64,000 bases of DNA, from NCBI RefSeq assembly GCF_036507355.1, contig NZ_AP027877.1. One strand, 5' to 3'. The stretch is from Escherichia coli. GTDB lineage: Bacteria; Pseudomonadota; Gammaproteobacteria; Enterobacterales; Enterobacteriaceae. Each line of letters starts with the position of its first letter. Position 1 is the first letter of the stretch. Position numbers and translations under genes: made by a program. This document shows positions 26,421-64,000 of this stretch, in pieces. Under the pieces are notes generated by a model. That model saw only the letters and a list, made by a program, of their open reading frames with translations, made no database searches and was not told where the DNA came from.

Positions 26421-26668
26421 TTTCCTCTCCAGTTCAGATTACTGCGATATTAATCTTTCGTTTTGTTTCACTTGATACTGCGTCATGGTGAGATAAAAAT
26501 AAAACGAAAGATAATAGTTTTCTGATCTGATTCACAAAAGAAACATAATGAAAGCCACTGAAACGAGAGTAGCTTGCGTCAATGGGCAAGGTGGGCTTGC
26601 ATTTGCTTAATAGAAAGGCGTTAATAGGCAAAACGAAATGAAACGAAAGTTTTACGAAAGGACTTACT
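26421..26668. promoter_or_regulatory. kbaZ/agaR divergent promoter region with AgaR operator-like repeats
   Basis: Repeated ctttcgttttgtttcac, aaaacgaaag, gaaacgaaag and tacgaaagg motifs. Confidence 0.5.
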
Positions 26669-34741: not shown

Positions 34742-35118
<377 letters not shown>

Positions 35119-35127
35119 GATTTACGT

Positions 35128-35157
35128 AAAAACCCGCTTCGGCGGGTTTTTGCTTTT
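35128..35157 (+). terminator. rnpB rho-independent terminator
   Basis: Hairpin acccgc-ttcg-gcgggt followed by ttttgctttt. Confidence 0.7.
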
Positions 35158-35287
35158 GGAGGGGCAGAAAGATGAATGACTGTCCACGACGCTATACCCA
35201 AAAGAAAGCGGCTTATCGGTCAGTTTCACCTGATGTACGTAATAAACCGTTCCGGCGGGTTTCAGATTGTTGAGTGCGCTTTATTCA

Positions 35288-35388
35288 TGCTGGATGCGGC
35301 GTGAACGCCTTAGCCTGCCTACAAAAGCACGCAAATTCAATATATTGCAGAGATGGCGTAGGCCTGATAAGCGTAGCGCATCAGGCAT
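35288..35388. repeat. REP pair (BIME)
   Basis: gatgcggcgtgaacgccttagcctgcctac and inverted gtaggcctgataagcgtagcgcatcaggca. Confidence 0.7.
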
Positions 35389-35505
35389 TTTTGCGGTTGC
35401 CATCAGTTTCAAACCCGCGTCGATAAGTTTTTGCTTTTGGTGCACAGGGTAAGATGCATGAATATCTACGGTATTAATAATAGACTTTGTAAGAACTTAT
35501 TAAGT

Positions 35506-36693
35506 CTATATTGCGTTTAAAAGGTCGTAATCATACGTATAGTCCTCTCTGGTAAAATATTGATTCTCTGAGTTATATGCTTCATATGTGTTATATTCCC
35601 CGACCTCAAAACCATTGTCCGGAGAATTTTCGTCTTTCTCGAGGGTGTTATCTGAAAGTAACTCTTCTGAGCTAGAGTCTTCTATGTTTAAATCCATAGT
35701 ATAATTAATTTGGGGAATGATCAGATAAGCATTTTCTTTGATATTTTCATAATCTTCAATGATTATGTCGATATAATCATGTGTTTTTTCTGATGAGAAA
35801 TCTATCATCTCTGGTAATTTAATTCTGTTCAAGCAATTGTTGATTTTCGATGAGCTTTTATATATTTCTTTTGTTAATTCATTTTCTAATTTATCTGTAA
35901 GAGTTGCTCTTGGTATAGATTTTATAATTGCAAATCTCATAATTTTTAATTGTTCTTCGGTAATGTCTCCAAGCTCATTCAAACAACTTTCGACAAACTT
36001 GATTTTTTCTTCAGAATACATATCGCTAATGCTTATTAAAACAGGCGTTATTTTTAGTAAATAATCCCAGGAGATTGTGGTGTTTTGTTTTGAACTAACG
36101 AAATTTACCTGAAACATGTTGGCATTAGTAAAATCTGTGTCATCCAATTTAAAAGGATTTAAAATTGCATTGGCCATATGTTTATCTGTAAAATCATAAA
36201 GTTCTAAATCGACATTACGTAAGTCCAGAGAGGATAGATCAACGATATCTCCAGTCCCACAACTAAAAATTACGTTTAACCTACTGATTTCATTGTAAAT
36301 ATCTTTTAATGGGCAATTAATATTGATATTGCCTGTGGATATTTCCTAGTTTTTTAACGGTTCATTAATGGTAAGTTCACAAGTATTGTCCGATCGTTGA
36401 ATAATTTGGGCGTTATAACCTAAAAAATCCAGACGAAGAGACGAGTCATTATAAAGAATTACATTTTGTAAGTACGCTAATTCTTTTTGAAAATCACCAG
36501 TGATAATGCATTTTCCACCAGGTTGTAACGTGTTAAGTAAAGTGACCATTTCAATAGAGGTCTGTTTTAGTTTTTCTATACCTGGTGCTAGTGCTTCGAG
36601 GTTATTTCCTGTTGGGCTTTCAGGAAGGTCATTCATTTTTCGACGGACTAAATCACTACTAATATCATTACCAATTGATGAAACAGGGAACAT
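35506..36693 (-). pseudogene. yhaC: yhaC, interrupted by a single in-frame amber codon
   Basis: 1188 bp equals 396 codons, the full YhaC length. One TAG (complement of 36346..36348) in ...EPLKN*EISTGN...; translation is otherwise continuous across the 115-aa and 223-aa ORFs, with no frameshift. Confidence 0.75.
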
Positions 36694-36714
36694 TATTTTA
36701 TCCTTTATAAATAA

Positions 36715-37254
36715 TCAATAAAAATCATTATTAAAATGATCGGGTGAAAAAAAGAGAATTTGCCAACAATCTGAAGTAATGCTGGTTTTATTAAAGTACG
36801 CAGGGGGTGTTAAGATGGCTTCTTTTCGGGTGAATTTTGCACAATACTTAGAAATCGTCTCCTTAATACATTCCAGCTCTTTTTTATTGACGGCTGAGCA
36901 AGTACATTTTTCGCCAAAAGGTGCAAAAGTGCCTACATCTAATGTTTGTATGATATAATCGTCATGTTCTCCTGTAGAAATATCTATGATGAATGGACTC
37001 ATATTTTCCGGTTGGATTCGGATCATGACAGAAGGAACATCGCCTTGATAGAAATTCAATGCAGTAATTGCAGATAATACTCTCCGCAGTTCATTACTTA
37101 TACTGTAAATTTTATTAACGTCATTGGTGGAGACAATTTCTGCAAACTTTCTTTTTACCGTCCAATAATCAATATTTCTATTGTGATTATTAACCACTGC
37201 GTGCATTGGTGGGATTGAAGGGTGAAAAATATGTGCAATTGGGAAGCCTTTCAT
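36715..37254 (-). CDS. yhaB: Uncharacterized protein YhaB
   Basis: ORF 36715..37284; start placed at MKGFPIAHIF (179 aa); AT-rich gene; synteny. Confidence 0.7.
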   Translation of the reverse strand: MKGFPIAHIFHPSIPPMHAVVNNHNRNIDYWTVKRKFAEIVSTNDVNKIYSISNELRRVLSAITALNFYQGDVPSVMIRIQPENMSPFIIDISTGEHDDYIIQTLDVGTFAPFGEKCTCSAVNKKELECIKETISKYCAKFTRKEAILTPPAYFNKTSITSDCWQILFFSPDHFNNDFY

Positions 37255-37509
37255 TGATGCCTGCCTTGTCATCATGACAAACAATAATAGATGCTTATTT
37301 TCCTCGCAGGGTTCTTTCGCACTATCAAAAAACGCTCATTTACCCGGCGTTACAGTAAACGAAGCAACATTCTGTGGCCTACGCCGATCAAAAGCTCTGT
37401 GAAAATTTCCCTTGTTGTCTTTGTCTGACCTTATCGCGGCGATCAGCAATTATTCGTTTTGTGATCCTCAACACAAAATGCTATTTGTCGCCTATGAGGG
37501 GAGAAGAAT

Positions 37510-37728
37510 TTATGGAAAACGATTGCATTCACAAAATGACGTCCTGTCAGAAGAGAAAAAGTTGACGTTAATCAATTGTTCGAGATGATCAATACCTGTA
37601 TTCGAAATTTTAAAATATTGATAAAATAAATGTTTGTTCTCCAACAAATAGCGTGAAAAAATGTGACGTGCCGCATTATTTATCGCTGAAAATGGTTTAT
37701 TTATAATAAAATTTGAGAACTTGCTCAT
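37510..37728 (-). CDS. tdcR: Threonine dehydratase operon activator protein TdcR (small ORF)
   Basis: ORF 37510..37866; 72-aa version placed at MSKFSNFIINK; divergent from tdcA. Confidence 0.55.
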   Translation of the reverse strand: MSKFSNFIINKPFSAINNAARHIFSRYLLENKHLFYQYFKISNTGIDHLEQLINVNFFSSDRTSFCECNRFP

Positions 37729-37963
37729 TAAATTTAACTCAAATTTTGCCTGGTAATTATCCGGTAATTGCTTGAAATATGGTCTCAGCCCCTTTTTTGT
37801 ATTAACCACATAACGAATGATGTTATCGCCATAAAATATGGTTATCCCCGTCATTTTTTTTGACAAAAATCAGGGTTTATGCTGATTTTTATACTTTAAC
37901 TTATTGATATTTAAAGGTATTTAATTGACATGACGATACCCTGGAAAGTATTGAAAGTTAATT

Positions 37964-37979
37964 TGTGAGTGGTCGCACA
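37964..37979 (+). promoter_or_regulatory. CRP-binding site in the tdc promoter region
   Basis: tgtgagtggtcgcaca matches TGTGA-N6-TCACA at 9 of 10 positions, 64 bp upstream of the tdcA ATG. Confidence 0.55.
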
Positions 37980-38042
37980 TATCCTGTTCATTTCATTTTG
38001 ATACACTTCATGCCGTCAATGAGGTAATTAACGTAGGTCGTT

Positions 38043-38981
38043 ATGAGCACTATTCTTCTTCCGAAAACGCAGCACCTGGTAGTCTTTCAGGAAGTCATTA
38101 GAAGTGGTTCTATCGGCTCGGCTGCAAAAGAATTAGGGTTAACTCAACCGGCCGTCAGTAAAATCATTAACGATATTGAAGATTATTTTGGTGTGGAATT
38201 AGTGGTGCGGAAAAATACCGGTGTAACATTAACACCTGCCGGTCAATTGTTACTCTCTCGTTCCGAATCCATTACCCGTGAAATGAAAAATATGGTTAAT
38301 GAGATAAGCGGTATGTCTTCTGAGGCGGTGGTGGAAGTCTCATTTGGTTTTCCTTCATTGATTGGTTTTACTTTTATGTCAGGGATGATCAACAAGTTCA
38401 AAGAGGTGTTCCCGAAAGCGCAGGTTTCTATGTATGAAGCGCAACTGTCTTCGTTCTTACCGGCAATCCGCGACGGTCGACTTGATTTTGCGATTGGTAC
38501 GTTAAGCGCAGAAATGAAGCTTCAGGATTTACATGTTGAGCCGCTGTTCGAGTCCGAGTTTGTGCTGGTAGCCAGTAAGTCCCGAACATGCACCGGCACC
38601 ACCACGCTGGAGTCGTTGAAGAACGAACAGTGGGTGTTGCCACAAACTAATATGGGGTACTACAGCGAACTGCTTACTACGTTACAAAGAAATGGCATCA
38701 GTATTGAAAACATCGTTAAAACCGACTCAGTCGTGACAATTTATAATCTTGTTCTCAATGCTGATTTCTTAACTGTAATTCCTTGTGATATGACGTCACC
38801 TTTTGGTTCTAATCAATTTATTACTATTCCGGTTGAAGAAACATTACCTGTGGCACAATATGCCGCGGTATGGTCGAAAAATTATCGTATTAAAAAAGCA
38901 GCATCGGTTTTGGTGGAATTAGCCAAAGAGTATTCATCTTATAATGGGTGTAGACGAAGGCAATTAATAGAAGTTGGTTAG
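38043..38981 (+). CDS. tdcA: LysR-family transcriptional activator TdcA
   Basis: 312-aa ORF with N-terminal HTH; recognised as TdcA. Confidence 0.9.
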   Translation: MSTILLPKTQHLVVFQEVIRSGSIGSAAKELGLTQPAVSKIINDIEDYFGVELVVRKNTGVTLTPAGQLLLSRSESITREMKNMVNEISGMSSEAVVEVSFGFPSLIGFTFMSGMINKFKEVFPKAQVSMYEAQLSSFLPAIRDGRLDFAIGTLSAEMKLQDLHVEPLFESEFVLVASKSRTCTGTTTLESLKNEQWVLPQTNMGYYSELLTTLQRNGISIENIVKTDSVVTIYNLVLNADFLTVIPCDMTSPFGSNQFITIPVEETLPVAQYAAVWSKNYRIKKAASVLVELAKEYSSYNGCRRRQLIEVG

Positions 38982-39079
38982 TTATTTGTTTTTATTTAAA
39001 CATAAATAATCCACCTGTCTGTCTTGCAGGTGTCGGTTACGGTTACCTACATATTTAATTCAGGCGAAGAGGTTTTATA

Positions 39080-40069
39080 ATGCATATTACATACGATCTG
39101 CCGGTTGCTATTGATGACATTATTGAAGCGAAACAACGACTGGCTGGGCGAATTTATAAAACAGGCATGCCTCGCTCCAACTATTTTAGTGAACGTTGCA
39201 AAGGTGAAATATTCCTGAAGTTTGAAAATATGCAGCGTACGGGTTCATTTAAAATTCGTGGCGCATTTAATAAATTAAGTTCACTGACTGATGCGGAAAA
39301 ACGCAAAGGCGTGGTGGCCTGTTCTGCGGGCAACCATGCGCAAGGGGTTTCGCTCTCCTGCGCGATGCTGGGTATCGACGGTAAAGTGGTGATGCCAAAA
39401 GGCGCGCCGAAATCCAAAGTAGCGGCAACGTGCGACTACTCCGCAGAAGTCGTTCTGCATGGTGATAACTTCAACGACACTATCGCTAAAGTGAGCGAAA
39501 TTGTCGAAATGGAAGGCCGTATTTTTATCCCACCTTACGATGATCCGAAAGTGATTGCTGGTCAGGGAACGATTGGCCTGGAAATTATGGAAGATCTCTA
39601 TGATGTCGATAACGTGATTGTGCCAATTGGTGGTGGCGGTTTAATTGCTGGTATTGCGGTGGCAATTAAATCTATTAACCCGACCATTCGTGTTATTGGC
39701 GTACAGTCAGAAAACGTTCACGGCATGGCGGCTTCTTTCCACTCCGGAGAAATAACCACGCACCGAACTACCGGCACCCTGGCGGATGGTTGTGATGTCT
39801 CCCGCCCGGGTAATTTAACTTACGAAATCGTTCGTGAATTAGTCGATGACATCGTGCTGGTCAGCGAAGACGAAATCAGAAACAGTATGATTGCCTTAAT
39901 TCAGCGCAATAAAGTCGTCACCGAAGGCGCAGGCGCTCTGGCATGTGCTGCATTATTAAGCGGTAGATTAGACCAATATATTCAAAACAGAAAAACCGTC
40001 AGTATTATTTCCGGCGGCAATATCGATCTTTCTCGCGTCTCTCAAATCACCGGTTTCGTTGACGCTTAA
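39080..40069 (+). CDS. tdcB: Catabolic threonine dehydratase TdcB
   Basis: 329-aa ORF; PLP lysine motif SFKIRGA. Confidence 0.92.
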
Positions 40070-60671: not shown

Positions 60672-60806
60672 CTTTAAAAGGTGAGAGCCATCACAAATGT
60701 GCGAATATTTGTAGGGACATTACCTGACGACAGCGAGGCCAGTACTGGCGCGGCCTGCAGCGAGATTTACCACTTTGAGAGTAATTTTTTTAACTACGTT
60801 TATTGA

Positions 60807-63905: not shown

Positions 63906-64000
63906 ATGACCGCGTATTGGCTGGCCCAGGGCGTGGGTGTCATCGCCTTTCTGATTGGTATCACAACATTTTTCAATCGTGACGAACGTCGCTTCAAAAA
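63906..64000 (+). CDS. ygjV: Inner membrane protein YgjV, 5' fragment (continues beyond the window)
   Basis: ATG at 63906; N-terminus MTAYWLAQGVGVIAFLIGITTFFNRDERRFK. Confidence 0.7.
   Translation, partial: MTAYWLAQGVGVIAFLIGITTFFNRDERRFK

Follow-up and report, generated by a model that had tools for sequence, protein, structure and literature searches.

The window analysed is a 64,000-nucleotide stretch of DNA, and the region described here corresponds to the yhaC-yhaB-tdcR / tdcABC locus of an E. coli-type chromosome (Table 1). A 901-bp query covering positions 37200..38100 found a match in 5,393 of 5,426 complete E. coli genomes, and the locus is tdcR/tdcA in 5,382 complete genomes. The best match is to O157 strain 493/89 (99.8%), with 98.8% to K-12; RefSeq features were transferred from these two strains. 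The locus is the same as that of the K-12 tdcABC(DEFG) promoter (RegulonDB/EcoCyc tdcAp; Datta and Sawers laboratories) at 98.8% identity, with the CRP dyad, the -10 element and the IHF core identical and nothing essential different. The strain differs from K-12 in a polymorphic patch at 37927..37932 (TTGACATGAC against TTGTAATAAC) and in three TdcR residues. The interval 37868..38042 has a GC content of 32.6% against 50.9% for the whole window, which bears out the AT-rich divergent region described in the earlier note. The tdc promoter, its CRP site and the curated tdcR annotation are already known and belong to textbook regulation.

Table 1. Features of the tdcR-tdcA region, in window coordinates.
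Feature	Position	Strand	Description
yhaB	36715..37254	-	E. coli-specific neighbour bounding the gap; RefSeq transfer
Distal CRP site	37460..37475 (centre 37467.5)		TGTGATCCTCAACACA (minus strand ttTGTGTtgaggaTCACAaaa); in the tdcR-yhaB gap
tdcR	37510..37728	-	72 aa plus stop codon; RefSeq
FNR-type site	37562..37575	-	TTGAT-TAAC-GTCAA; inside tdcR; 9 of 10 positions; candidate
Second IHF consensus match	37611..37623	-	TATCAATATTTTA; inside tdcR; predicted
N-terminal extension of the tdcR frame	37729..37866	-	Possible starts TTG 37866, ATG 37854 and GTG 37809
Conserved block	37822..37848		GTTATCGCCATAAAATATGGTTATCCC; most conserved upstream stretch, second to the CRP site
FNR/LysR-type dyad	37860..37873		TTGAC-AAAA-ATCAG; fits an FNR box and a LysR-type T-N11-A box
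IHF consensus core	37897..37909	-	TATCAATAAGTTA (WATCAANNNNTTR); exact match, predicted site
Proximal CRP site	37964..37979 (centre 37971.5)		TGTGAGTGGTCGCACA; sequence match and conservation
tdcA -10 element (putative)	37999..38007	+	TG at 37999..38000, one base, TACACT at 38002..38007
tdcA	38043..38981	+	LysR-type activator, first gene of the operon; RefSeq transfer
tdcB	from 39080		RefSeq transfer

For comparison, 64 tdcA loci from other species were collected by a genome-collection scan. These represent about 15 enterobacterial genera, among them Escherichia, Citrobacter, Salmonella, Raoultella, Kluyvera, Enterobacter, Lelliottia, Yokenella, Trabulsiella, Pseudocitrobacter, Silvania, Cedecea and Leclercia. 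An alignment of 32 sequences covering the 350 bp before tdcA (alignment A1) has a mean column identity of 64%, and column numbers given below refer to it. The proximal CRP half-sites, the -10 element, the IHF core, a TTGA-N6-TCA dyad and a GTTATC block are all invariant or nearly so in this alignment.

The proximal CRP site (TGTGA-GTGGTC-GCACA) matches 9 of 10 half-site positions of the CRP dyad TGTGA-N6-TCACA, which is defined with G at positions 5 and 7 of each half-site, and its centre lies 71.5 bp from the tdcA ATG. At no more than one mismatch the window contains five CRP sites, against an expectation of 1.8, and as many as five turned up in 2 of 100 shuffles; taken by itself, the pattern match could be due to chance. 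The match gains significance because its half-sites are conserved in an alignment of such low mean column identity. In 64 of 66 tdcA loci a CRP site with no more than one mismatch is located 68.5 to 73.5 bp before the ATG, and columns T265, G266, G268, A269, G270 and C277-A280 within it are invariant. Among orthologous regions the half-sites are conserved and the 6-bp centre is variable, as is also true of the distal site. Within E. coli, the segment 37945..38011 exhibits no polymorphism among 12 sequences.

The putative -10 hexamer occupies the same position across loci and reads TACACT in 36, TAGAAT in 26 and TACAAT in one, with columns T299, A304 and A306 invariant. In the TACACT lineages the hexamer is preceded by TG, giving an extended -10 element. 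No -35 element is present at the tdcA promoter, and a simple sigma-70 promoter scan found no promoter at this position, as expected for an activator-dependent promoter that has no -35 element. The CRP centre and the first base of the -10 hexamer are separated by 30.5 bp. At class II promoters this distance is 29.5-31.5 bp, and CRP is centred near -41.5 (range about -40.5 to -43.5) so that it overlaps the -35 region. From the position of the hexamer, transcription of tdcA would start at about 38013..38015, so that the CRP centre would fall near -42.5 (+/-1), in what appears to be class II geometry. A position of -43.5 has reportedly been published for the tdc CRP site. A literature search found no ChIP-exo report for tdcA. 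The earlier note had proposed a CRP site upstream of tdcA, and its sequence and coordinates proved exact, with conservation across loci and class II spacing to the -10 element. The catabolite control that it read from this site is supported as well, since tdcA is listed by RegulonDB as a CRP target and was recovered by genomic SELEX-chip (PMC3105977). Control of tdc has been summarised as involving CRP, IHF and TdcR (PMC9426608), the operon is listed as FNR-activated (PMC2634741), and H-NS binds and represses it (PMC3212961).

Upstream of the CRP site, the predicted IHF core is one of only seven IHF consensus matches in the 64-kb window. Of the 66 loci, 26 have the consensus at the homologous place and most of the others have a near-consensus sequence there, and columns A199, T206 and G207 of the core are invariant. 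The tdc operon reportedly requires IHF. The second predicted IHF match sits in a block that is conserved among Escherichia species. Further upstream, the dyad at 37860..37873 agrees with the FNR consensus TTGAT-N4-ATCAA at 8 of 10 positions, and the LysR-type T-N11-A box fits equally well. The form TTGA-N6-TCA is found at the homologous place in 62 of 66 loci, columns T161, T162, G163, A164 and C172 are invariant, and the dyad overlaps the TTG that opens a 118-codon frame containing tdcR. The conserved block at 37822..37848 would encode the peptide GITIFYGDN in that extended frame. Genera in which no ORF exists at this place also keep the block invariant or nearly so, which makes it a DNA element and not a peptide. 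This block may be a TdcA site, the -10 of a divergent promoter (TATTTT, 37838 down to 37833), or both; TdcA is the obvious candidate to bind both it and the dyad at 37860..37873. The FNR-type site inside tdcR coincides with the site TTGATTAACGTCAA proposed for an FNR ChIP-chip peak labelled yhaB (PMC1802558), and conservation of its half-sites was not found outside Escherichia.

Taken as a whole, the interval is very probably best explained as the core promoter of the tdcABCDEFG operon in an E. coli/Shigella-type genome. In the proposed mechanism, cAMP-CRP would bind the proximal dyad, which overlaps the -35 position of a promoter, TGnTACACT, that has a -10 element only. Because of this overlap, CRP would be expected to recruit RNA polymerase directly, in the class II manner, which would make the operon cAMP-dependent and so subject to catabolite repression. 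The bend induced by IHF most likely would let an activator bound upstream reach the promoter, and TdcA is the obvious candidate for this activator, with FNR as another possibility; the strongly conserved blocks 37860..37873 and 37822..37848 also lie upstream. Sequence and spacing are thus consistent with a tdc promoter that works like a class II CRP promoter with added IHF and LysR-type input, the start site being a predicted one. Known class II CRP promoters (galP1, melR, pmelR-type; Busby and Ebright 1999) likewise have a CRP dyad in place of the -35 element and share with tdc the 30.5 bp spacing from centre to hexamer and, for the TACACT lineages, the extended -10 TG. Simple class II promoters differ in that they do not need IHF and a far-upstream LysR-type activator, whereas tdc probably needs both. 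Binding of CRP in vitro has been shown by others for tdcA by SELEX (PMC3105977) and for the distal site by Footprint-seq (PMC12871828).

The distal CRP site lies in the gap between tdcR and yhaB, which the earlier note had given as 225 bp (37285..37509) and unassigned. No annotated feature is found there, but the gap does contain this CRP dyad. The length of 225 bp also presupposes that yhaB begins at the TTG at 37284, whereas the RefSeq start is at 37254 and lengthens the gap to 255 bp (37255..37509). The dyad, TGTGA-TCCTCA-ACACA, matches 9 of 10 positions of the CRP consensus. An identical sequence at NC_000913.3 position 3267646 is among the novel CRP sites in Table 1 of a Footprint-seq preprint, which lists it under yhaB and estimates its Kd at 3.8 nM (Wang, Stringer and Wade, bioRxiv January 2026; PMC12871828). 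That list gives no function for the distal dyad (PMC12871828), and what is added to it here is the conservation across genera, the fixed spacing and the position at the edge of a conserved module.

A distal dyad of the form TG[TC]GA-N6-[AG]CACA was found at 55 of 64 loci. Its half-sites are TGTGA/ACACA at 25 loci, TGTGA/GCACA at 10 and TGCGA/GCACA at 20, and the centres vary freely. The dyad is always situated 500-507 bp upstream of the proximal CRP site, with 503 and 504 bp the commonest spacings and 504 bp the one found here. In Enterobacter, Lelliottia, Pseudocitrobacter and Kluyvera the dyad reads TGCGA-N6-GCACA, so that the left half carries a T-to-C change. This change is typical of the Sxy-dependent CRP-S sites with their TGCGA half-sites (PMC1635313). 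The distal dyad differs from them in that a single half-site is of that type and nothing links it to competence genes.

Homology across genera begins within about 10 bp of the distal dyad and extends toward tdcA. Over the 613 bp to tdcA, 33 distinct sequences align in 628 columns, of which only 27 are gapped, and a six-frame search of these 33 sequences found no frame that is consistently open outside Escherichia. The stretch from about 37455 to 38042 thus appears to behave as one AT-rich, length-constrained regulatory module of about 590 bp. The Escherichia tdcR ORF lies inside this module, and the distal CRP site closes its far end. Such a module upstream of tdcA would be unusual in the degree to which its length is constrained. 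The malEp-malKp, acsP2 and deoP2 control regions likewise combine more than one CRP site in a single AT-rich region with IHF-type bends, but the tdc dyads, about 504 bp apart, are spaced far more widely.

The preprint assigns the distal dyad to yhaB (PMC12871828), and the dyad could accordingly be the CRP site of a yhaB(C) promoter with no relation to tdc. Its intergenic location upstream of yhaB in E. coli speaks for this, as does an RNA polymerase SELEX peak between tdcR and yhaB. We consider this assignment unlikely, given that the distance of 500-507 bp to the tdc CRP site is fixed in 55 of 64 loci of which nearly all are without yhaB. Most loci with the distal dyad have neither yhaB nor an intact tdcR; at the other loci, all that was found of yhaB is a fragment in E. 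albertii, and what lies beyond the dyad depends on the genus: rnpB, a transporter gene or a mobile element. The homology that starts at the dyad also runs toward tdcA and not toward yhaB, and in E. coli 213 bp separate the dyad from the yhaB ATG and about 177 bp separate it from a predicted promoter. Because of this conservation pattern the distal dyad probably belongs to tdc rather than to yhaB, and a CRP site recently reported as novel and of high affinity would be reassigned from yhaB to the tdc control region. At tdc it may counteract silencing by H-NS, take part with the two IHF-consensus bends in a long-range architecture, or control a divergent transcript. The two palindromes could also be read as RNA hairpins, such as a terminator or a 3' stabiliser of the tdcR transcript, and not as protein sites. 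A terminator scan flags 37455..37480, which contains the distal dyad, as a stem-loop; the distal palindrome follows the tdcR stop codon by about 30 nt; and RNAalifold on both strands of the module gives two hairpins only, which are the two CRP palindromes. This is extremely improbable, as the arms are invariant (TGTGA / CACA) and do not covary around a freely varying 6-bp centre, three of the nine pairs in the A/U-rich stem are G-C, and CRP binds the distal site in vitro with a nanomolar Kd (PMC12871828). An intrinsic terminator at 37455..37480 was rejected, since on the tdcR strand, which is the minus strand, the stem is followed by CGAATAATTG and there is no U-tract. Consensus folding of both strands found no conserved RNA structure beyond the two dyads, and an Rfam scan of 35000..39500 identified rnpB and REP-like elements before 35400 only, with nothing from yhaC to tdcB.

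The minus-strand frame at 37510..37866 begins with the TTG at 37866 and has 118 open codons, a length that the earlier note had given while preferring a 72-aa model for tdcR. That preference agrees with RefSeq, with the NCBIfam model NF008507 and with disruption of the extension in five other Escherichia lineages. NF008507 (72 positions, equivalog) scores 174.2 bits against a cut-off of 100, and its positions 1-72 align with residues 47-118 of the 118-codon frame. Of 8 Escherichia species, 7 retain the ATG at 37728. No interruption of the 72 codons is seen in E. whittamii, E1V33, E69, MOD1 or E. albertii, the last of which has ATA instead of a start codon, and SCPM has one stop there. The extension is open in E. 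coli and Escherichia sp. MOD1 only. The ATG is missing from E. whittamii, E1V33, SCPM and E69, in which a +1/-1 indel pair also displaces the frame over about 37856..37800; in E. albertii the extension has no ATG and two stops. No convincing Shine-Dalgarno sequence precedes any of the candidate tdcR starts when the sequence is read directly, and a literature search found no ribosome-profiling report for tdcR.

Many older records give a 114-aa TdcR starting from the ATG at 37854, and the 72-aa annotation would be a truncation if the true protein were this form or the 118-aa form from the TTG at 37866. Besides the open frame itself, entries of 114 aa named "DNA-binding transcriptional activator TdcR" are numerous (one cluster has 2,338 members), tblastn similarity in many genera begins at residues 1-2 of the 118-aa frame, and polymorphism within E. 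coli is 0.051 per site in the extension against 0.073 in the 72-codon core. The similarity across genera is nevertheless that of cis-element DNA, with no start codon there and stops within about 40 codons, and the curated NCBIfam model has only its 72 positions. The ATG at 37854 also sits within a conserved promoter-like block and has no Shine-Dalgarno sequence before it. Together with the frameshifts and stops in the other Escherichia lineages, this makes a long TdcR quite improbable. The gene is best annotated as the 72-codon ORF; that the 46 codons upstream of it are also open in E. coli is a matter of chance, and they overlap with conserved cis elements. The comparison thus provides a case for the 72-aa start, while the 114-aa start is still present in thousands of database entries.

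The 72-codon tdcR ORF has a dN/dS of 0.50-0.80 against six other Escherichia lineages, and two out-of-frame readings of the same DNA, used as a control, gave 0.27-1.21. For tdcA, dN/dS in the same Escherichia lineages except E69 is 0.008-0.024. Against E. whittamii, substitutions at the three codon positions number 9:11:12 in tdcR and 3:2:52 in tdcA; the tdcR counts against E69 are 7:13:8, and the 16 polymorphic tdcR sites among 12 E. coli sequences are distributed 7:6:3. Purifying selection or a third-position bias was not found in tdcR in these comparisons. The tdcR region diverges from E. whittamii by 0.15 per site, roughly half of the tdcA dS of 0.31, and because of this lower rate it appears to be constrained, though not in a codon-aware manner. 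Homologues of tdcR with a named source come exclusively from Escherichia/Shigella, making it an orphan. Among 1.84 billion representative proteins searched exhaustively there were 12 hits, none of them a relative from outside Escherichia; each is either a fragment of this protein or an artefact. The 117-aa hit P0052, which resembles an A-to-G-converted copy, was discounted as probably artefactual. No Pfam domain was found in tdcR, and an AlphaFold2 prediction of the 118-aa frame from a shallow alignment of 20 sequences has a mean pLDDT of 40.4. In strain AVS0153 tdcR is marked as a pseudogene by RefSeq, and C-terminally truncated TdcR variants are common, with one truncated allele having 110 members.

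These data put selection on TdcR as a protein in question, even though it is listed as a single-member transcription-factor family. One reading holds that tdcR is not a functional protein-coding gene and that the DNA is an ancient cis module in which the ORF has become open recently or is open by chance. On this reading, the effects in trans reported for cloned tdcR would arise because AT-rich DNA in multicopy titrates a DNA-binding protein such as H-NS, which does bind the region. A dN/dS indistinguishable from that of out-of-frame controls and the even spread of substitutions over codon positions favour this reading, as do the orphan status, the low pLDDT, the AVS0153 pseudogene and the truncated variants. 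In Citrobacter, Salmonella and Kluyvera, the apparent peptide motifs of TdcR are moreover co-linear despite one to seven stops and no start codon. On the other hand, if the observed substitutions were placed at random, the 72-codon frame would stay open in 12-48% of cases per lineage; that it is open in five lineages is a weak, though consistent, sign that openness is under selection. The start codon at 37728 is also kept in most Escherichia species, and young, fast-evolving small proteins can likewise reach a dN/dS near 1. Classical genetics, said to be that of Schweizer and Datta in 1989 and Hagewood et al. in 1994, reportedly named tdcR a positive regulator, and the original description of TdcR is said to have claimed a helix-turn-helix. 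Because the frame is open beyond random expectation and because of the classical genetics, TdcR is kept by default as a real but fast-evolving small protein, and a non-coding tdcR is regarded as possible but the doubtful choice.

It is conceivable, and put forward here only tentatively, that what is conserved upstream of tdcA is the module of about 590 bp with its two CRP sites and not tdcR, which would be a lineage-specific ORF (a de novo gene or a non-functional one), and that the distal site serves tdc. If so, two CRP dyads would be held about 504 bp (about 48 helical turns) apart across the Enterobacteriaceae. The tdcR gene would be a small gene born de novo from the regulatory DNA of its own target, or would encode no functional protein, and the distal CRP site would work for tdc through H-NS anti-silencing or a long-range architecture of IHF bends. 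Adaptive IS5 insertions in the mouse gut also hit the tdc control region (PMC7518454); like the FNR peak, they are described in K-12 coordinates, and their placement on the window depends on genome-version offsets and is tentative.

The sequence upstream of tdcA contains an AT-rich region of ~590 bp (37455..38042) that can be aligned across at least six genera and is nearly free of indels, with gaps in 27 of the 628 columns of an alignment of 33 sequences. Neither a conserved ORF nor a consensus RNA structure was found in this region across the aligned sequences, and the frame homologous to tdcR is broken within it by in-frame stops, not by frameshifts.

The upstream end of this region holds a second CRP dyad, located in the gap between tdcR and yhaB. 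This distal dyad is kept in 55 of the 64 loci, 500–507 bp upstream of the CRP site of the tdc promoter, and its conservation extends across genera in which yhaB is missing and tdcR is not intact. A 2026 preprint lists the identical sequence as a novel CRP site, with an estimated Kd of 3.8 nM, and assigns it to yhaB (PMC12871828). In Enterobacter, Lelliottia, Pseudocitrobacter, Kluyvera and other genera (tdcA loci L036–L066), the dyad reads TGCGA-N6-GCACA at about -575 from the tdcA ATG, and its left half-site carries a T-to-C change of the kind typical of Sxy-dependent CRP-S sites. The Rho-independent terminator of the upstream gene in these genera often stops ~30 bp short of the distal dyad.

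Features of the tdc–yha region and other CRP-like sites, in window coordinates
Feature	Coordinates	Strand	Remarks
Second (distal) CRP dyad	37460..37475		tdcR-yhaB gap; in L004–L066 (tdcA loci of other enterobacterial species), near position -575 relative to the tdcA ATG
FNR-type site TTGATTAACGTCAA	37562..37575		inside tdcR coding sequence; 9/10 consensus positions
yhaC	35506..36693	minus	in-frame stop, Q116 to TAA, at 36346..36348
rnpB 3' end to yhaC spacer	35118..35505		length-variable
naRNA4	35278..35319		sub-threshold Rfam match
ES036/CssrF	35323..35365		sub-threshold Rfam match
CRP-like site	26521..26536		pattern match, one mismatch
CRP-like site	60680..60695		pattern match, one mismatch
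CRP-like site	63950..63965		pattern match, one mismatch

Substitutions in tdcR (37510..37728) exhibit no codon-position bias, whether Escherichia species are compared or E. coli sequences with one another, and its dN/dS is 0.5–0.8 whereas that of tdcA is 0.01–0.02. For strain AVS0153, RefSeq annotates the gene as a pseudogene. An allele truncated at the C-terminus is common. An exhaustive protein search with the TdcR frame identified a 117-aa database protein (P0052) that resembles TdcR with nearly all A-encoded residues shifted (K to G, N to G/S and I to V) in a pattern like A-to-G conversion. This entry is probably a database artefact, assembled from chemically converted or hypermutated reads. 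The FNR-type site within tdcR is proposed as the site beneath an FNR ChIP-chip peak labelled yhaB (PMC1802558), and it is not conserved beyond Escherichia.

During the evolution of E. coli in the intestines of old mice, the intergenic region of tdcA and tdcR acquired IS5 insertions, at up to 65% frequency, and a recurrent A-to-C SNP (PMC7518454). Among the 12 E. coli sequences sampled, polymorphisms bunch in the stretch that separates the CRP site from the IHF core (37890..37944), including 37927..37932, which is TTGACATGAC in the window versus TTGTAATAAC in K-12; no variation was found at 37945..38011. Using reconstructed coordinate offsets, we tentatively place the mouse-gut changes at about 37958..37998; IS5 would then land at the TTAA immediately before the CRP dyad, and the SNP would create a TRTG extended -10.

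The yhaC gene of this genome is a pseudogene: compared with K-12 and O157 strain 493/89, in which yhaC is intact (395 aa), position 36348 has changed from G to A, which creates the stop. Across the yhaC-yhaB stretch (35506..37520), none of 5,426 complete E. coli genomes exceeds 98.4% identity, and the neighbouring tdcR-tdcA stretch reaches 99.8% in the same set. This lower identity and the nonsense mutation together suggest that the genome belongs to Shigella or to a lineage not yet sampled, or that recombination occurred at yhaC. The adjacent spacer between rnpB and yhaC measures ~219 bp in O157 493/89, 387 bp in the window and 613 bp in K-12, and Rfam models of REP-associated sRNAs match parts of it below threshold.
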